A DNA stretch of 64,000 nt from Syntrophorhabdaceae bacterium (lineage in GTDB: Bacteria > Desulfobacterota > Syntrophorhabdia > Syntrophorhabdales > Syntrophorhabdaceae). Under the pieces are notes generated by a model that was given only the letters and a program-made list of their open reading frames with translations, did no database searches and was not told the DNA's origin. The translations under genes were made by a program, and so were the position numbers. Location of the stretch: positions 1,184,001 through 1,248,000 of the forward strand of contig CAXXUO010000001.1 of assembly GCA_963666485.2 (NCBI GenBank), written 5' to 3'. Of the stretch, positions 8,052-15,870 are shown piece after piece (within the stretch, counting starts at the first letter, position 1; every line of letters begins with the position of its first letter).

Positions 8052-8572
8052 TGCCGGTCGGACATACCATACCCATTATCGGATTTGCAGGGCGCGCGAA
8101 TAGCGGCAAGACCACCCTCATCGAAAAGGTGATCTCTGTTTTTAAGAAACAGGGGCTGCGCGTGGCTGTGATCAAGCATGTCCATCACCCGTTCGACTTC
8201 GATGTGCCCGGAAAAGATACCTACAGGCATAAAAAGGCAGGGGCCGACAGCGTGATAGTTGCGTCGCGCGAGCAGTTCGCAATGGTAAAGGACACGCCGG
8301 AGGAATATTCGCTGGGGGATATCATATCGCGCTATGTGGACGATGGCGCCGACCTTATCATCGTCGAGGGGTTCAAAACCGCGCAGATCCCGAAGATAGA
8401 AGTTTATACGCGCACAAGCGGCGAGCCCCCCCTTTGCGCCTCGGGTGACCGCCTGTATATCGCAGTGGCGACCGATGACGATCTCGATGTGCCCGTCCCG
8501 AAATTCAGACGGGACGAAGCGGACGCGATAGCCGGTTTCATTTCAAGACATATACTGAAGAGGGATGCGTAA
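8051..8572 (+). CDS. mobB: Molybdopterin-guanine dinucleotide biosynthesis protein B
   Basis: GRANSGKTT P-loop; IKHVHH..FDVPGKDTYRH; VEGFK. Confidence 0.92.
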   Translation: MPVGHTIPIIGFAGRANSGKTTLIEKVISVFKKQGLRVAVIKHVHHPFDFDVPGKDTYRHKKAGADSVIVASREQFAMVKDTPEEYSLGDIISRYVDDGADLIIVEGFKTAQIPKIEVYTRTSGEPPLCASGDRLYIAVATDDDLDVPVPKFRRDEADAIAGFISRHILKRDA

Positions 8573-8575
8573 AGG

Positions 8576-9313
8576 GTGTCTCTGCGAAAAGATGAAGCGA
8601 TAGTCCTGTCGAAGCGTGCGTACGGTGAGTCGGACCGGATCATCCACCTTTTTACGCTGGACGCGGGGAAAGTGTCGGCGATAGCGAAAGGAGCGGGGAA
8701 AAGCCAGAAGCGCTTTGCCAATACCCTGGAACCGTTCAACCGCATCAGGGTCGAATATTTTGACAAGCACGGCCGGGGGATGGTCCGTATAGACAATGCC
8801 GACCTCGTCTCGGGCAATAACGGCATCGAGATGAGCATGAAGCGCATATGCAGCGCCTCGTTCTTCACGGAGTTCGTCGACCGCATGACGCGCGAGAGGG
8901 AGCCGCATACAGGACTCTTTGCAGCGCTTGAAGAGTTCATCGCTTTTGCCCGGTCAAAAGACCCGGAATATTCAGACATCCTTTGCTGCGAATTGAGAAT
9001 GCTCGACGTTCTCGGATATCACCCCAACTTCGATACCTGCGTCTTTTGCGGGACCGGCATGCACGATGATGAAAAGGTCTATTTCTCCCGGGAGCGCGGG
9101 GGGATACTATGCGGGCCGTGCTCGCGGTCTCTACCCCACAGGAGATGGTCCCAAGGATTAATGCGTGGGTTCCTCGCGGTGAAGAACAGTGAAGCGGGTT
9201 TCGCAACGCGCTCGCTCGAGCGCGAGGCGCAGGAACTGATGGAAGGTTTTCTAAACTATCATATCGATATCGATCTCAAGTCGTACAAGCTGCTGAAATC
9301 GATGGTCTTCTGA
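8576..9313 (+). CDS. recO: DNA repair protein RecO
   Basis: YGESDRII..FT...GKV.AIAKGA N-terminus; zinc finger CVFCG...CGPC. Confidence 0.93.
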   Translation: MSLRKDEAIVLSKRAYGESDRIIHLFTLDAGKVSAIAKGAGKSQKRFANTLEPFNRIRVEYFDKHGRGMVRIDNADLVSGNNGIEMSMKRICSASFFTEFVDRMTREREPHTGLFAALEEFIAFARSKDPEYSDILCCELRMLDVLGYHPNFDTCVFCGTGMHDDEKVYFSRERGGILCGPCSRSLPHRRWSQGLMRGFLAVKNSEAGFATRSLEREAQELMEGFLNYHIDIDLKSYKLLKSMVF

Positions 9314-9380
9314 AACGTAAGGCGTAAGCCCTCTCCCCTGTTGTCATTCCCACTTTCGAGACTGTGTCCCAATTCCTCCA

Positions 9381-9419
9381 ACCCCGTCATCCCGGCTCTT
9401 ACGGCCGGGATGACGGGGT
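9381..9419. repeat. REP-like palindrome / bidirectional terminator
   Basis: Perfect 16-bp stem ACCCCGTCATCCCGGC...GCCGGGATGACGGGGT between convergent genes; the CGTCATYCC start is shared with 47767 and 47884. Confidence 0.7.
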
Positions 9420-9429
9420 GAGGGACGCC

Positions 9430-11319
9430 TTACGCTCTTTTCGAGAGCAATATGAGATTCTGGTCCGCCAATGTTTCGTATTTCTTTGAACGGGACAATT
9501 CTGCTATAAGGACGGGATCGGGGCGGTCGAGAACGAACACCATTGTGCCGCTGGGCTTCAGGTACGTCATCCCCCGTTTTATATACGCCTTTGTTGCATC
9601 GGCGACAGGGACCGTCTCTTCCCACGTGAGGCCCTGTGAGGGCTGGACAAATATGTAATCGAACGCTCCGTCGATAAGGAACGGGAATTCTATCTCGAGA
9701 TGAAAGAAACCGTTCTGCCTTGCGAGGGCCTTTGCCTGCACGAACCAGTCGCGCGCCGTCATCGCGTCCCATGGCCCACTGTCGGCGTCAAGCAGGGAAA
9801 GGCATTCCTGGATCTTCCGCTGATCGATCGTCTTAACAAAATATGTGGCTGTTATAAGGTCCATGATGTCCCTCAAACGGCCCAAGTGTTCGTCCAGTTT
9901 TTGCGACAACTCCCCCTTTATGACAACGTCTTCCTTGATCCTGTCGGAAAGCGAGGCGAACTGCCGGTACATGTTTCTTACATCTGCCACGATGTCAAGG
10001 GGGTTTTTGGCGAAGAGGCCCGCCTGGTCCTGCTTCGCCGCATGCGGGGTGATGTCGGACAGTGACATCCCGATAAGAGGGTTGCCTAACTTATAATTCA
10101 TGCTGTCGCACCCGTGGCGGTTCTTTAAAGCATGATGAAGAATATCGAACGAGATATGAGAACGCTCGATACCGTAGAGAACATTTTCGAGTATGGAGCA
10201 CTTCAGGCTCTTCTCATCCTCCCATTGGGCGATGAAGCCATTCCTTTCCCGGTAGGGAAGGACAAACGAGAGATATGCCAGGCATTCGACGATCTCGAGG
10301 GAAAGGTTGCCGAAGCCGGGCGTCATGTCGAGGACCTTGAGCGACAGGAGCGCGTCCTTTGTCCGGTCCTCGGGCGGGCGCATCGCAAATACCCTTTCGA
10401 GGTCGACACGGGGAATGCCGCCTTTTTTGCTGAGGAGAAAAGAAGATATGTCGGCGATATTGAAATCGTCGACCGTGTCGGGCGGGCTCTTCCGTTCCTG
10501 TACCCATACATCTTTTTCGGCAAGGTAATCCCGCGTTGAAACGAAAACATCATTCCCGAAGATATCCGAAAGCCCCCCGATTATGCGGGGGAAGATGTCC
10601 GTCTTTTTTCGAAAGCCTGCCGTGGATGTGCGAAGGGCTGCCTGTTTCTCCTTGAGACGCGTTATTATGGACTGCCTTTCGTTTTCATAGATTTTTTCGA
10701 GGGTCTGCGACAGGCCGTTGAGTGAAAAGACATTGCAGAAAAGACGCAGCGCGTCCCTGTCGTTCACCTCGACGGCCTCCTCGAGGTCTATCGAAAAAAC
10801 ACGCGTTTCATAGGACAGCGGCTTTTTCATCAGCATCCAGTGCTTCCCGTTGGTGAGGATGCCCCAGGGCGTTTTCGTGTTCTTGAGGTAATAGAACAGC
10901 TGGTATAAGGGGATGCCATTCTCGAAAGCGAGAAAAAAGCCGCTCACCCCTTCCTCGAGTTTGCGGCCGAACCGCTTGAGAAGAAGCACCCCGAGCGTGT
11001 TGGCGTAATATTCCGGGGTCCCCCACAGGGGCGATGTGCGGTCGCGTTCGGCATCGGTCGTGAAAAGGGCCGCATCCGGTCCCTTGATATGGTCGTCGAA
11101 ATACTTCGGTTTCGATTCATAGGAGAACCCGAGTATCTTCAGTATGGGTTTGATGAGGTGGATCTCGGTGTGTATCTCGCTCGCGAACTGCTTTATATCC
11201 TGGAACCGGGTCAGTATCTCGAGGAGCGAAACGTATACGAGGTCATCCTGGGGAAGGCCGAGGAGCTCTTCTATCCCGTGGCGGGAAATGAGCGAATTGC
11301 GCACGATGGTCGATTGCAT
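9430..11319 (-). CDS. Type IIG (Eco57I-like) restriction-modification homologue with degenerate catalytic motifs
   Basis: E..IKPILKILG, PDAALF, Q..YY...WGILTNG..W (REase part); LKVLDMTPGFGN, LYGIE, GNPLIG, FFHLEIEFP...FDYIFVQP (MTase fold). Confidence 0.72.
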   Translation of the reverse strand: MQSTIVRNSLISRHGIEELLGLPQDDLVYVSLLEILTRFQDIKQFASEIHTEIHLIKPILKILGFSYESKPKYFDDHIKGPDAALFTTDAERDRTSPLWGTPEYYANTLGVLLLKRFGRKLEEGVSGFFLAFENGIPLYQLFYYLKNTKTPWGILTNGKHWMLMKKPLSYETRVFSIDLEEAVEVNDRDALRLFCNVFSLNGLSQTLEKIYENERQSIITRLKEKQAALRTSTAGFRKKTDIFPRIIGGLSDIFGNDVFVSTRDYLAEKDVWVQERKSPPDTVDDFNIADISSFLLSKKGGIPRVDLERVFAMRPPEDRTKDALLSLKVLDMTPGFGNLSLEIVECLAYLSFVLPYRERNGFIAQWEDEKSLKCSILENVLYGIERSHISFDILHHALKNRHGCDSMNYKLGNPLIGMSLSDITPHAAKQDQAGLFAKNPLDIVADVRNMYRQFASLSDRIKEDVVIKGELSQKLDEHLGRLRDIMDLITATYFVKTIDQRKIQECLSLLDADSGPWDAMTARDWFVQAKALARQNGFFHLEIEFPFLIDGAFDYIFVQPSQGLTWEETVPVADATKAYIKRGMTYLKPSGTMVFVLDRPDPVLIAELSRSKKYETLADQNLILLSKRA

Positions 11320-11351: not shown

Positions 11352-11609
11352 TTAGTCAAGGAAAGGCGCATCATCATTGTCTTTGTGAAAGTCCATGTCC
11401 TGTATGCGCTTTGCCTCCTTGAGCTTCATGAGAATAATGACGATGAGACCGGCGATGCCAATCCAGAAAAGCACGAGGGCCTGGTACAGGATATGCCGGT
11501 CGTACGGGGAGGCTGCCGGTTCAACAACGGTCGGCCCGGCGAAACAGACAACGGGTATCACAATAAGCATGATGAAAACGGTAAATGATCTGCACATCGT
11601 CCTGTCCAC
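11352..11609 (-). CDS. Small membrane protein (CcmD-like C-terminal helix)
   Basis: Signal-like N-terminus, one TM helix (LFWIGIAGLIVII) and a charged tail; abuts the cytochrome b stop. Confidence 0.65.
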   Translation of the reverse strand: MDRTMCRSFTVFIMLIVIPVVCFAGPTVVEPAASPYDRHILYQALVLFWIGIAGLIVIILMKLKEAKRIQDMDFHKDNDDAPFLD

Positions 11610-12674
11610 CTATTTTAAGAAAGCGATGATCGTCATTGCCACGAAATAGACGAGGTAAAAAACCGTAATATATGTAAAGACCGGGCTCGGTTTGCCGGCT
11701 GACGACCTCTTGTCCAGGAACGGCACCAGGAAGACGAACAGGACGCCAAGGGAGATCGCGGATATAGCGATCGTTTCACCGTTCATGCCCGCTATCTCGC
11801 CGGGGAAAAGCTTCAAGGTCTGGAAGACGAAGAGGAAGTACCATTCCGGTTTTATGTTTTCCGGCGCAGGCGCCATCGGGTCTGCCTTCGTCCCTATCGA
11901 TGCAGGAAAGACGACTGCAAGGGTGACGACGACGCCCGTGCACAGGAGCCAGACGATAAGGTCCTTGTAAAAAACATTCGGGAAAAATGGCTGCGGTCTT
12001 CCCTGCCGGTCTTTCTGGGACAGGGGGACGCTCATGCCGTGGACCTGGACGAGCAGCACGTGGACCCCGATGATGACAAGGCTTATCATGGGCAGGACGC
12101 TGACATGAAAGGCATAGAACCGCGTCAGGGTCTCCTGCGTGACGTCAAAGCCGCCGCGCAGGAATATCTTGATGGCCGGGCCGATGAGCGGAAGGTTCCC
12201 TGCGCCTCCCGTCGCAACGCGGATCGCCGTGAAGGCCCTTTCGTCCCAGACAAGAAAATATCCGCTCAGCCCGAAAAAAACGAGAAGGGTGATCAGGATG
12301 AAGCCGGTTATCCATAACAGTTCGCGCGGCTTCCGGTATGCCTTCAGCAGGAAGTTGGCGAAAAAGTGAACGAACAGCGAGGCTATCGCAAGTTGCGCAC
12401 CCCAGTGGTGCAGCGACCGGAAGAACCAGCCCAGGGGGAGCTTCGTCATAATGTCGACAATGCTCTTGTGGGCGTATTCGGAATGGGGGATGTAGTACAG
12501 GGCAAGGCCCATGCCTGTCATGAATTGCATGACAAAAAGGAAGAGGGTCATCCCTCCCGTAAAATACGAGATGTCCCAGCGGTGCGACGGGACGTACTTT
12601 GCCCGGATGACCCGGCGCAGGCCATCCACGTCGTAGCGCTCGGTGATCCAGTCACTAAGCTTTCGGGAGTTCAA
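11610..12674 (-). CDS. petB: Cytochrome b subunit of a Rieske/cytb complex
   Basis: Heme-ligand His in RSLHHWG..HFF and FYAFHV..VHV; YRKPREL.W.TG; Qo-site PEWY. Confidence 0.93.
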   Translation of the reverse strand: MNSRKLSDWITERYDVDGLRRVIRAKYVPSHRWDISYFTGGMTLFLFVMQFMTGMGLALYYIPHSEYAHKSIVDIMTKLPLGWFFRSLHHWGAQLAIASLFVHFFANFLLKAYRKPRELLWITGFILITLLVFFGLSGYFLVWDERAFTAIRVATGGAGNLPLIGPAIKIFLRGGFDVTQETLTRFYAFHVSVLPMISLVIIGVHVLLVQVHGMSVPLSQKDRQGRPQPFFPNVFYKDLIVWLLCTGVVVTLAVVFPASIGTKADPMAPAPENIKPEWYFLFVFQTLKLFPGEIAGMNGETIAISAISLGVLFVFLVPFLDKRSSAGKPSPVFTYITVFYLVYFVAMTIIAFLK

Positions 12675-13125
12675 CCTTCACCCCTTTTTTCGCTATGACC
12701 AGTTTCGGCCCGTTCATGACGATCTCGAAGCATTCGAGAGGCCGCGGAGGGGGGCCCTCGATGTTCCTGCCGTTGTCATCGAACCACCCCTTGTGGCACG
12801 CGCAATAGAATTTTCGCACATCCGCCACGTAGGATATGTTGCACTCCATGTGCGTGCAGACCCCTTTCAGTGCGAGCATCGTACCGTCGGCTTTTTTCAG
12901 GAAAAAACCGGGTTTGCCGCCCCATGCGAACGTCTTTACGGTGTTTCCGGGTATGTCGACAAAATCGGCCGTGTTGAGAACGACAAAATCCGGCTCTTTC
13001 CCGACAGCGGGAAAGATGAACTTGAGGAAGGCGTAGATGCCCCCGGAGAGGACAGCGATAAGCCACCCGCCGAAGAGCGTGTTGAGAAATGTCCGCCGGC
13101 TGATGAGTGAATAGTTGAGTTTCAT
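12655..13125 (-). CDS. Rieske iron-sulfur protein
   Basis: Tat-like SRRTFL; CTHMEC and CACH boxes; GPPPRPL; ATG overlaps the sdhB stop. Confidence 0.93.
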   Translation of the reverse strand: MKLNYSLISRRTFLNTLFGGWLIAVLSGGIYAFLKFIFPAVGKEPDFVVLNTADFVDIPGNTVKTFAWGGKPGFFLKKADGTMLALKGVCTHMECNISYVADVRKFYCACHKGWFDDNGRNIEGPPPRPLECFEIVMNGPKLVIAKKGVKVELPKA

Positions 13126-13862
13126 CCGCGCATACCCAGCAATTTCTTTGCCCTCTTTACGAAAAGCTTCTTCCTCAGGTCGATTATCGCATCGGTCGGC
13201 CGCACATCTTTCGGGCATGCCTCGATGCACTTAAGGACTGTATCACAGCCCCAGACCCCGTGCTCGCTGTCTATCTCGTCGAGTGCTGAGTCAGGGCGTT
13301 CATCGCGGGAATCGAGGACAAACCTCTCGAGCTTGGCGAGCGCCGCCGGCCCTAAGTATTCGGGGTCACGGGATATGACCGGGCACGCCCCGTAACAGCA
13401 TGCGCACAGGATGCAATTCACGAACTGGTCGATCTTTGCCCTGTCCTCCTCGCTTTGTTTCAATTCCTTTTCGGGGTCCTGACCTGACCGGTCAAGCCAT
13501 GGCCTTATCTTCTCGTACATCGTCCAGAACGGGGTCATGTCTACGACGAGGTCCTTTATGATCTCCATGTTCGGAAGGGGCTCGAGGATTATCGTGTCCG
13601 TCCCGAACGATGCCGCCTGCGTCCTGCAGGCAAGGTCTATCCTGCCGTTCATGACCATGGCGCAGGACCCGCAGACCGCAGACCTGCATGACGAACGGAA
13701 TGAAAGCGTCCCGTCTATCTCGTCGCGTATCCTGTTAAGAACGGCGAGGATGGTCAGCCCGGGCAGTACCCTGACCCGGTAGGTCTGGAACCTCGCTCCG
13801 TCCCCCGGTTTTTTCCTGTCGTAGCGCAGGATCTTGAAAGTGTATGCCGTGGCCCGTATCAA
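13122..13862 (-). CDS. sdhB: Succinate dehydrogenase/fumarate reductase iron-sulfur subunit
   Basis: SCRSAVCGSC..LAC, CILCACCYGACP, CDTVLKCIEACP; TTG start overlaps the sdhA stop. Confidence 0.95.
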   Translation of the reverse strand: MIRATAYTFKILRYDRKKPGDGARFQTYRVRVLPGLTILAVLNRIRDEIDGTLSFRSSCRSAVCGSCAMVMNGRIDLACRTQAASFGTDTIILEPLPNMEIIKDLVVDMTPFWTMYEKIRPWLDRSGQDPEKELKQSEEDRAKIDQFVNCILCACCYGACPVISRDPEYLGPAALAKLERFVLDSRDERPDSALDEIDSEHGVWGCDTVLKCIEACPKDVRPTDAIIDLRKKLFVKRAKKLLGMRG

Positions 13863-15568
13863 TACGTCCTCTCCATTGGCTTGAAACGGGTGATCGCAAC
13901 GTCCCTGTATGATATGTCCGGCATCCCGCTGCCATTCAGGCGGGCGATCGAATGCCTGAGCCATTTCTCGTCATCCCTTTTTGGAAAATCGGTCCGTGAA
14001 TGCGCCCCCCTGCTTTCTTCACGCAGGAAGGCCCCGCGGGCGATCGTCGAGGCCACGTCGAACATGTAATCGAGTTCGATGGCGTTCATGAGTTCATAGT
14101 TCATTGAAAGTGAGGACGAGGAGGTCCCGACATCCCGGTACCGCACCTTCAACGCCGCTATTTCTTCAAGGGCCTTCTGCGCGTCTGCCGCTGTCCGGAA
14201 GATGCCGGCGTACGTGCTCATCACCTTTGCGAGCTCCCCGTGGAGCTGAAATGTCTTTTCTTTCCCTCCGGCAACGAGGCCCCGGACCTTGTCCTCCAAG
14301 GCCGCCGCGGCACGCGCACAGGCCTTGTCATCCGGTGCTCTGCCGGAAGACGACAGGTACCGGTCGATGGCCGCCGCGGCTATCTTTCCGAACACGATCG
14401 TCTCGAGAAGCGAATTGCCGCCGAGCCTGTTGGCGCCGTGGACGCTGACGCAGGCACATTCGCCTGCCGCGAAGAAACCCCCTACCTCTGTCGCACACGT
14501 GGCGTCGGTATCGATCCCTCCCATGGAGTAATGCTGGCACGGCATAATGGGGATGGGTTCCCTGATGGGGTCAATACCTATAAAATCTATGCATATCTTC
14601 CGGATGCCCGGCAATTTTTCGGTGATCTTCTTCTCGCCGAGGTGCATGAGGTCGAGACGGATGTAGTTCCCGAGAGGATGCTCGAAGCAACGGCCTTCGT
14701 TGATCTCTGTCTGTATGCTCCGGGAGACTATGTCGCGGGGGGCAAGCTCCATGGCCTTCGGCGCATATTTCTCCATAAAGCGTTCACCCCGCGCATTGAC
14801 CAGGTAGCCGCCTTCGCCCCGGCAGGCCTCGGTCATCAATATGTTGGTCCCGATAAGCCCGGTCGGGTGGAACTGGACGAATTCCATGTCCTTGAGCGGC
14901 ACCCCGGCCCGAAATGCCATCCCGATCCCGCTCCCCGTATTGATAAGTGCGTTCGTCGAGTAGAAATAGACCCGTCCGTAACCCCCGGTCGCAAAAAGGG
15001 TCGCCTTAGCGGCGAGCGAGACGATCTCCCCGTTCATGAGGTCGAAGGCGACGACGCCATGGCAGGTTTTCCCGTCAACCACAAGGGATGTTACGTGCCA
15101 TTCCGGGTATATCGTGACGCCGAGGCTCACCGCCTTTTCGAACAGCGTGTTCAAAAGAACATGCCCGGTCAGGTCCGCGGAGTAGCAGGTTCTCGGGTAC
15201 CCTGCCCCGCCGAAAGGCCGCTGGGCGATGGTGCCGTCCGGGAGGCGGCTGAACGGGCACCCCCAGTGCTCCATCTCGTAGACGATCCCGGGGGCTTCCC
15301 TGCACATGATCTCCACCGCATCCTGATCTGCGAGGTAGTCGCTCCCTTTTACCGTGTCGAAGGCATGCTTTTCCCAGGAGTCGTCGGCTGCGTCCGGGTT
15401 GTTCCCGAGGGCAGCGTTTATGCCGCCCTGGGCGGCGATGGAATGGGACCTCAAGGGGTGGACCTTGGACAGGAGCACGACATCGTACTTCCCGCAAAGT
15501 CCCACGGCGGCGCGAAGCCCTGCAAGGCCGCCCCCGACTATGATGACATCATGGGTACGCGTTATCAT
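13859..15568 (-). CDS. sdhA: Succinate dehydrogenase/fumarate reductase flavoprotein
   Basis: GGGLAG; RSHSIAAQGG (covalent FAD His); QFHPTG; LAPRD; HYSMGG; HGANRLGGNSL; REESRGAH. Confidence 0.96.
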   Translation of the reverse strand: MITRTHDVIIVGGGLAGLRAAVGLCGKYDVVLLSKVHPLRSHSIAAQGGINAALGNNPDAADDSWEKHAFDTVKGSDYLADQDAVEIMCREAPGIVYEMEHWGCPFSRLPDGTIAQRPFGGAGYPRTCYSADLTGHVLLNTLFEKAVSLGVTIYPEWHVTSLVVDGKTCHGVVAFDLMNGEIVSLAAKATLFATGGYGRVYFYSTNALINTGSGIGMAFRAGVPLKDMEFVQFHPTGLIGTNILMTEACRGEGGYLVNARGERFMEKYAPKAMELAPRDIVSRSIQTEINEGRCFEHPLGNYIRLDLMHLGEKKITEKLPGIRKICIDFIGIDPIREPIPIMPCQHYSMGGIDTDATCATEVGGFFAAGECACVSVHGANRLGGNSLLETIVFGKIAAAAIDRYLSSSGRAPDDKACARAAAALEDKVRGLVAGGKEKTFQLHGELAKVMSTYAGIFRTAADAQKALEEIAALKVRYRDVGTSSSSLSMNYELMNAIELDYMFDVASTIARGAFLREESRGAHSRTDFPKRDDEKWLRHSIARLNGSGMPDISYRDVAITRFKPMERTY

Positions 15569-15870
15569 ACTGTGACGAAATACATGTAGAGTAAAAAAGC
15601 CGATATGGCCGACGCGGCGATATTGGCGGCGAGGAACAGCCGTTTTTCATTCCTGTACCCGAAGTCCATGACAATGGTCCTGATCCCGTACATGCTGTGG
15701 AACGTGAACAGTACGAGAACGAGGACATCGACGATAGGCTGGCGGTGGAGGCTGAGCGCCCAATCGGGCTTCTTGTCCTGCCCCATGAGGAAATAGCCGG
15801 TGAGCACCTTGATGCCGATAAGAACGATAAGCGCCGCTCCGCTTATCCTGTGAAAGAACCATATGAACAT
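15565..15870 (-). CDS. Succinate dehydrogenase membrane anchor (SdhC/D-like, 3 TM)
   Basis: FHRISG and FHSMYGIRTIVMD motifs; three hydrophobic helices; first gene of the sdh operon. Confidence 0.85.
   Translation of the reverse strand: MFIWFFHRISGAALIVLIGIKVLTGYFLMGQDKKPDWALSLHRQPIVDVLVLVLFTFHSMYGIRTIVMDFGYRNEKRLFLAANIAASAISAFLLYMYFVTV

Follow-up and report, generated by a model that had tools for sequence, protein, structure and literature searches.

A stretch of 64,000 nucleotides from the genome of a Syntrophorhabdaceae bacterium (contig CAXXUO010000001.1, hereafter the window) carries an operon of six genes, in which a succinate dehydrogenase (Sdh, complex II) with a single membrane anchor is directly joined to a Rieske protein, a cytochrome b (cytb) and a small membrane protein. 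This gene order is kept in Syntrophorhabdia, Syntrophia, other Desulfobacterota and Aminicenantes, and thus in two phyla, and its carriers are many anaerobic, mostly syntrophic bacteria. The six-gene system is possibly a new type of enzyme. In the reading that we favour, to which we give an even chance, the proteins form one complex in which the Sdh anchor replaces cytochrome c as the partner of the Rieske protein and a reversed Q-cycle drives the oxidation of succinate.

Organization of the operon

The source genome, whose nearest named relatives are metagenome-assembled genomes of Syntrophorhabdus, comprises 3.77 Mb, is 99% complete and contains one cytochrome b. Open reading frames (ORFs), junctions and starts were read directly from the window sequence and families were assigned with Pfam and NCBIfam. 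Positions 11352-15870 of the minus strand are occupied by six ORFs, listed here in the order of transcription:

15565..15870, minus strand: single complex II anchor (SdhC/D-like), 101 aa, three helices (Pfam Sdh_cyt, 42 bits)
13859..15568, minus strand: SdhA/FrdA flavoprotein, 569 aa (FAD_binding_2 and Succ_DH_flav_C; TIGR01812 at 777 bits, cut-off 567)
13122..13862, minus strand: SdhB iron-sulfur subunit, 246 aa (Fer2_3 and Fer4; NF004616 and TIGR00384 above cut-off)
12655..13125, minus strand: Rieske protein, 156 aa, one helix (Pfam Rieske and weak TM_PetC)
11610..12674, minus strand: long cytochrome b (b6 and subunit IV fused), 354 aa, seven helices (Cytochrome_B and Cytochrom_B_C)
11352..11609, minus strand: 85-aa protein with signal peptide, short spacer, one helix and basic tail, without a family in Pfam or NCBIfam

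The anchor gene is flanked by a divergent gene on one side and by sdhA on the other. The genes overlap by ATGA at the anchor/sdhA junction, by TTGA at sdhA/sdhB, by ATGA at sdhB/Rieske and by 20 nt between Rieske and cytb, while cytb and the 85-aa gene abut (TAG followed by GTG). For sdhB, the most likely start is the TTG at 13862 located behind a GGAGAGG sequence, with the ATG of the longest ORF at 13964 being disfavoured, and for the Rieske gene it is the ATG at 13125. Our reading of every junction thus confirms the six genes with overlapping or abutting start and stop codons of the original prediction. Its statement that no CxxCH haem-c motif is present holds for all proteins (0/6), although it is true of the operon only. 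A promoter/terminator scan found no sigma-70-like promoter upstream of the anchor, and terminator-like matches only inside ORFs, where they carry no information.

Conservation and distribution

The arrangement was followed from both ends of the operon. In a cytochrome b scan of species genomes, evaluated for the best 80 of 100 relatives, which include Syntrophorhabdaceae, Syntrophales, Smithellaceae and Syntrophorhabdus aromaticivorans UI, the gene order is identical in all 65 loci with enough upstream DNA. Of the 80 loci, 65 have the anchor, 75 have sdhB, and Rieske and the small gene are each present in 77; every one of the 15 loci missing the anchor has less than 2 kb of upstream DNA, and the three missing the small gene end within 72 nt. 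In the reverse test starting from the anchor (best 80 of 465 metagenome relatives, 79 scored), where the proteins are named Aminicenantes by their sources, sdhA, sdhB and Rieske are present in 39 of the 39 loci with at least 3.6 kb of downstream DNA. The gap between sdhB and Rieske ranges from -11 to +80 nt in 112/112 loci. With the order conserved in 65/65 and 39/39 loci, a local accident is ruled out. The cultured host S. aromaticivorans UI carries the entire operon (L037), and in G348, a 99% complete genome of the family, the anchor, sdhB and cytb are missing together.

A profile of the anchor run over 401 genomes of the phylum gave 17 close and 11 second-tier matches. The operon is contiguous by coordinates in 16 of 17 clade-1 genomes, and the same order is found in seven of the 11 second-tier genomes (one broken by a contig end), with a homologue of the small gene at six loci. 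Of 32 Rieske/cytb splits with support 0.95, 22 recur in the SdhAB tree (71 rows), and distances in the two trees correlate with r = 0.945, much of this agreement being expected from kinship alone. The adjacency of both modules, for which the original prediction had proposed a survey of relatives, is thus conserved across two phyla, and the two trees largely agree.

In the set of 24 operon genomes used for all counts of SdhB, electron acceptors and cytochrome maturation, the SdhB of the operon is the sole SdhB in 20, which makes the operon the only source of a complex II in most carriers tested, and 21 contain a gene of the methylmalonyl-CoA mutase family, which is located within ~10 kb of the operon in three. 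Neighbours in clade 2, labelled by eye, include fumarase, malate dehydrogenase, succinyl-CoA synthetase and 2-oxoacid oxidoreductase. When flanks of 167 loci were clustered, cytochrome c, as judged from N-termini, was found in none of the 28 commonest neighbour clusters. In four bioreactor metatranscriptomes, RNA contigs match segments of the S. aromaticivorans operon at low depth. One of them reaches across the junction of sdhB and Rieske but extends too little beyond it on one side to count, and such contigs cannot show co-transcription.

Several further features were noted alongside. The window genome contains a second sdhAB pair (L088 7959-10397; G000:C2:277959-280397) that has no adjacent anchor match, is flanked by genes for fumarase C, PutA and isocitrate dehydrogenase and forms a long branch in the SdhA tree. 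Inserts ahead of the small gene are found in L004 and L028, the former containing, between cytochrome b and the small gene, a 510-codon frame (8057-9720) that by eye resembles an IS110-type transposase. In 47 clade-1 loci the operon is immediately followed by the gene of a 629-aa protein (window 9430-11319, minus strand) that has no match in Pfam or NCBIfam; from its motifs we take it to resemble a degenerate restriction-modification (methyltransferase-like) protein.

A complex II with a single anchor

The original prediction that SdhA retains the covalent-FAD His and the dicarboxylate-site motifs agrees with the TIGR01812 score above cut-off and the presence of these motifs, five of six of which are found in 62/62 clade-1 sequences, with a strict GANRLG pattern in 45/62. 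SdhB contains the three-cluster Cys pattern, with CDTVLKC as the third cluster box. A covalent-FAD His flavoprotein and a three-cluster iron-sulfur subunit place the proteins in the complex II superfamily. A periplasmic location of SdhAB was rejected, as the RRxF motif for twin-arginine translocation (Tat) is present in 0/131 N-termini of SdhA and 1/128 of SdhB.

The proximal quinone site is altered. SdhB of clades 1 and 4 carries [AST]R and mostly CDT at the corresponding positions, where several conventional control SdhB proteins have YW or FW at the former, and in the anchor D69 is followed by L, F or M. In Escherichia coli, this site involves residues which we take to be SdhB Trp164 and His207 and SdhD Tyr83. 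Judged from these alignments, the proximal quinone-site residues are missing from SdhB (Trp, His) and from the anchor, which sets the protein apart from class C.

The anchor finds its best counterpart in the class A enzyme Sdh2 of Mycobacterium smegmatis (PDB 6LUM), whose haem ligands are C-His87/D-His107 at the proximal and C-His47/D-His65 at the distal haem (PMC7447783). In an alignment to chains C and D, H58 of the anchor coincides with the proximal-haem His and K21 with the distal-haem His. An AF2 model (pLDDT 95.5) has 6lum_C as its best fold match (Z 10.3, rmsd 2.5, 101 residues aligned) and places H42 at the end of a periplasmic helix comprising residues 36-42. H7, R8, K21, H42, D48 and H58 are invariant in 96/96 full loci, and in 36 broader homologues position 21 is K, Q or R whereas H42 and H58 are invariant in 36/36. 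We read the anchor as a predicted two-haem wire whose outer haem would be shifted to the surface via H42.

Of the features that define class A, two anchor subunits are replaced by one anchor gene, the only one that the profile finds in the genome, and the distal-haem His of helix I/IV by Lys21 in 96/96 loci. A missed second anchor gene was rejected, with none found among the window ORFs or in the genome profile search. With one anchor gene, a haem bundle would therefore have to be a homodimer or borrow helices. The hallmarks of classes B, E and F (five- or six-helix anchor, CCG anchor, anchor-bound Rieske cluster) are absent from this protein of 101 aa and three helices with no such Pfam match, class B being understood in its customary sense. 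Classes E and F were defined according to PMC10238741. The complex II described here is thus outside every class whose defining features were tested.

A Rieske/cytochrome b module without its cytochrome

The Rieske protein starts with a twin-arginine motif (SRRTFL), which suggests export by the Tat system, and contains the boxes CTHMEC and CACHKGWFD, the latter as originally predicted, together with the disulfide Cys. The twin arginine and G113 are each found in 96/96 full loci, whereas at position 115 both Phe (65 of the 96) and Tyr (31) occur. The loss of the canonical Ser and Tyr lowers the potential of Rieske clusters by ~130 and 65 mV, with exceptions (PMC12954380). Starting from a reference of +285 mV (PMC5861303), this motif suggests a potential of roughly +90 mV, near the +33 mV of the fumarate/succinate couple (PMC5861303).

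Cytochrome b contains the haem ligands His 89/103/190/205 in 96/96 loci and the Qo motif P-[ED]-W-[YF], which is PEWY in the window. At the Qi side, Q210 is found in 93/96, K/R237 in 88/96 and D/E238 in 95/96 loci, residues (Gln210, K237-D238) which we presume to correspond to their equivalents in bc1. A b6f-type protein is not indicated, given the lack of the haem-ci Cys (YFTGG in place of CxGG; no Cys at positions 38-39) and the single chain of 354 aa, where b6 and subunit IV would be split. With four haem His, the Qo motif and a membrane-anchored Tat-type Rieske protein with both boxes, the proteins resemble other Rieske/cytb complexes, except that the operon contains no cognate c-type acceptor, an unrelated acceptor in trans being possible. 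The module thus lacks its cognate cytochrome.

The sixth gene and a sister family with a nonahaem cytochrome

The nearest cytochromes b outside the operon (G365, G057, G234 and G076) are part of Rieske-cytb-nonahaem cytochrome c clusters. This sister clade has a 9-haem cytochrome c in 4/4 loci and Sdh in none. The C-terminus of the cytochrome consists of one helix with a KIRxIE-like tail and the 85-aa protein contains a helix with a KL[RK]EIER tail, which hhalign matches at 92% (E 5.8e-7, 27 columns). In this profile comparison, from which the link between the two proteins derives, 87 of 120 cytochrome tails exceed the 99th percentile of 1566 control helices and 107 of 120 the 95th percentile of 156 stricter C-terminal controls. 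The sister-type nonahaem cytochrome was found in 0/24 operon genomes at E 1e-20, while the same search detected it in 4/4 controls. In nine closely related loci of the Aminicenantes clade, the helix of the sixth gene is fused to the C-terminus of cytochrome b; one further fusion is a probable frameshift. From the tail match, the missing cytochrome and these fusions, it appears likely that the haem domain was deleted and the anchor kept, and that the 85-aa protein is a haem-less remnant of the anchor of the sister cytochrome c that now serves as a structural subunit of cytochrome b. Among 46 candidates, no longer homologues of the 85-aa protein were found; its Atlas matches are unnamed clusters and CcmD_alt at 0.84, the latter being a lead only.

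Candidate electron acceptors

An alternative acceptor of electrons from the Rieske protein was sought in the 24 operon genomes. A haem-copper oxidase above cut-off is present in two and NrfA in ten, and the class I cytochrome c family was not found in eight. No tested electron sink is therefore common to all operon genomes, and a c-type shuttle of another family is possible.

The window genome itself, from a presumed strict anaerobe, contains an alternative complex III-like cluster, after which come cbb3-type oxidase genes (L089 1422-11747; G000:C1:577421-587746); a search of 11 other members of the family revealed no haem-copper oxidase. Side by side at L090 8197-11324 (G000:C1:1366196-1369323) are an 11-haem and a 9-haem cytochrome c, of which the latter has several membrane helices. 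Large clusters with molybdoenzyme/NrfD genes, multihaem cytochromes, a flavin Fe-S oxidoreductase and split Rieske/cytb genes were observed at L156-L161.

Proposed mechanism and energetics

In the favoured reading, the six gene products would form one membrane enzyme with the complex II module in place of cytochrome c. Since SdhAB is cytoplasmic and the Rieske head periplasmic, a direct link would require a transmembrane wire, which is available only from the anchor. Two copies of the anchor would build a haem bundle, with H58/H58' ligating the proximal haem and H42/H42' a haem at the periplasmic face, whose propionates would be faced by K21. From succinate, electrons would pass via FAD and the Fe-S chain to the anchor haems, which would carry them through the membrane to the Rieske cluster. 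Menaquinone (MK) at Qo would receive one electron from the Rieske cluster and one from haem bL, with the latter being supplied by the oxidation of menaquinol (MKH2) at Qi. The wire implies that four charges would be moved per two electrons, in the net reaction succinate + MK + 4 H+(out) -> fumarate + MKH2 + 4 H+(in), which is twice the gearing of dihaem succinate:menaquinone reductases. Such an enzyme would be reversible and could serve flux through the TCA cycle or the methylmalonyl-CoA pathway.

We have calculated the energetics with +33 mV for fumarate/succinate and quinone pools at -74, -150 and -200 mV, in nine combinations of pool and proton motive force (pmf). The value of -150 mV is that of methylmenaquinone. 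With this pool and a pmf of 150 mV, succinate oxidation amounts to +6.4 kJ/mol if two charges are coupled and to -22.6 kJ/mol with four. The coupling of four charges makes it downhill in 8/9 combinations, whereas two charges fail at pools of -150 mV or below, which favours a pmf-driven oxidation of succinate. Of the two directions initially envisaged, reverse electron transport from succinate is thus favoured provided that four charges are coupled, while the reduction of fumarate is uphill in 8/9 combinations.

Attempts to detect a contact computationally were uninformative. When two anchors were co-folded with four haems and cytochrome b, the score was 0.00, with controls not folded, which speaks neither for nor against it, and covariation in 98 paired sequences (effective number 37) contained phylogenetic signal only. 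That such modules can be covalently joined follows from an unrelated locus (G067:C21, L252 6722-11703), which combines an SdhA-like gene and a single His-type anchor with an SdhB::Rieske fusion and a cytb::cytochrome c fusion. Its substrate may differ, because the flavoprotein has no covalent-FAD His. The anchor of this locus has a very short loop, and genes reading as dsrAB are located nearby.

A more specific proposal goes further, namely that the operon represents a complex II class of its own and a novel kind of respiratory enzyme, in which complexes II and III are hard-wired into one hybrid by a homodimeric anchor of three helices, with a periplasm-shifted haem acting as c1. This hybrid would perform quinone-based electron confurcation (4 H+ per succinate), providing syntrophs with a route of reverse electron transport, and would have arisen by deletion of the nonahaem domain and plugging in of Sdh. 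We hold this to be somewhat short of an even chance.

Counter-evidence and alternative explanations

Several observations weigh against a single complex operating in this way. Spending 4 H+ on each succinate would be expensive in catabolism, and both the contact between modules and the binding of a haem by H42 are features that we infer. Tyr115 is kept in 31 of 96 Rieske proteins, and the rule relating the Ser/Tyr motif to potential has exceptions. The original prediction that the loss of both residues lowers the potential finds support in the literature (PMC12954380), but the Gly/Phe motif is no adaptation to Sdh: the sister clade without Sdh contains Gly in 4/4 and Phe in 3/4 loci, so that the low-potential motif appears inherited, and a specific tuning was rejected. 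In the comparison with the sixth gene, the highest-scoring C-terminal control is exceeded by just 47 of the 120 tails. The three operon clades and the sister group form an unresolved branching in the cytochrome b tree, which therefore does not show a single origin of the operon; 4 of the 32 splits conflict between the SdhAB and Rieske/cytb trees, and L022 and L063 carry inserts between Rieske and cytb. The window genome contains about 14 c-type cytochrome candidates outside the operon (picked by eye). Finally, MqnA/D, MenD and MqnC were not found above cut-off in this genome, so that menaquinone is an assumed quinone here; MenA-like prenyltransferases and UbiA/UbiE-like genes are present, an auxotrophy for a quinone precursor is possible and MqnC-like genes were found in 2/4 relatives tested.

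The remaining counter-evidence also speaks for two separate, co-regulated enzymes linked via the quinone pool, which we consider rather unlikely. Here, the anchor would hold a distal quinone site, with K21, H42 and D48 of the homodimer as proton and quinone ligands, and Rieske/cytb would donate to a periplasmic carrier encoded elsewhere. In line with such a role, H42 aligns with SdhD Glu86 (Glu-D86) of 6LUM, the proposed proton entry to the distal quinone site (PMC7447783). In the four other second-tier genomes (G399, G246, G124 and G090), a K21/H42 anchor accompanies sdhAB with no Rieske/cytb adjacent; their Rieske/cytb genes lie elsewhere, are of another type and have their own c cytochromes. 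A quick tree of 51 SdhA rows places the single-anchor group on one side of a branch (support 97), with these genomes as sister to the operon clades (support 90, weak), so that the anchor type seems older than the join. The operon is naturally split in G152, between Rieske and cytb with both halves retained, and in L062, between sdhA and sdhB, where sdhB-Rieske-cytb is kept and another gene replaces sdhA. Cytochrome c maturation is present in 23/24 operon genomes, and the window genome has the alternative complex III-like and cbb3-like genes described above. The explanation is at odds with the lack of a tested acceptor family common to all operon genomes, with the reduction of the ancestral cytochrome to its anchor, with a sdhB-Rieske junction of at most 80 nt throughout the 112 loci and with the absence of the distal His pair, which removes the known route to a distal quinone. 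As a separate observation, L136-L139 contain single Lys21/His42 anchors with sdhAB but without Rieske/cytb and without His7.

The same complex might also work as a proton-pumping quinol:fumarate reductase, which we regard as unlikely. Quinol would be oxidized at Qo, the high-potential electron would return via the Rieske cluster and the anchor haems to fumarate, and 4 H+ would be released outside per succinate. Anatomy and conservation are shared with the favoured reading, the presence of a sole SdhB in 20/24 genomes speaks for it and the clade 2 neighbours (labelled by eye) suit either direction; with four charges the reaction is nevertheless uphill in 8/9 combinations and favoured only at -200 mV and a pmf of 100 mV. 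SdhA has a Gln at a position described as SDH-type (PMC7447783), a weak marker of direction because it is found likewise in 7/7 conventional controls. Very unlikely in our view is that the modules meet on the side of the cytoplasm, as Mitchell originally conceived the Q-cycle (recounted in PMC5600118). In this case the anchor would bind the proximal haem only, Sdh would feed the semiquinone at Qi and the Rieske protein would donate to an unspecified periplasmic acceptor. The lack of the distal His in the anchor is consistent with this arrangement, as are the cytoplasmic oxidoreductase subunits of anammox Rieske/cytb complexes (PMC5600118), but a high-potential acceptor is still required, with none found in common, and the invariant periplasmic His42 is left unexplained.

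Relationship to known systems and implications

The operon shares features with several known systems. With the class A dihaem succinate:menaquinone reductase Sdh2 of M. smegmatis, which is proposed to oxidize succinate in vivo at the expense of the pmf (PMC7447783), it has SdhA, SdhB, the anchor fold and the proximal-haem His in common, 6LUM being the best match of the anchor in both sequence and fold; it differs by the single anchor gene, the distal Lys, the new His42 and the joined Rieske/cytb genes. A haloarchaeal Rieske/cytb-nitrate reductase cluster likewise combines a complex iron-sulfur enzyme with a Gly/Phe low-potential Rieske protein and no cytochrome c. This enzyme is periplasmic and high-potential, linked by a periplasmic b cytochrome and operating in a forward Q-cycle (PMC3509893), whereas SdhAB of the operon faces the cytoplasm and its electrons have to pass through the membrane. 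The sister clusters have the nearest cytochrome b, the Gly motif and the matching C-terminal anchor, but keep the 9-haem domain without Sdh genes alongside, and no characterization of them was found. Class F complex II (M. smegmatis Sdh1, PDB 7D6V) also uses a Rieske cluster, which is located inside a six-helix anchor, without a separate Rieske protein or cytochrome b (PMC10238741). Anammox Rieske/cytb-NAD(P) oxidoreductases are encoded in operons with a cytoplasmic oxidoreductase, but keep c-type cytochromes and high-potential Rieske clusters (+303 and +335 mV), and their partner is not complex II (PMC5600118, PMC12954380). Full-text literature searches aimed at the present arrangement returned no description of it, most of the hits being judged from their listings and abstracts; the section of PMC5600118 on Dibrova clade G' (long cytochrome b, large operons, function unassigned) names no Sdh.

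A homodimeric anchor is often supposed to have preceded SdhC/SdhD, and the operon offers a testable case of such an anchor in complex II. The oxidation of succinate by anaerobes with low-potential quinones is an old bioenergetic question, to which the known solutions rely on two charges and a dihaem anchor. If the favoured reading is true, a Q-cycle geared to complex II would double this coupling and constitute a physiological, reversed quinone bifurcation without cytochrome c.

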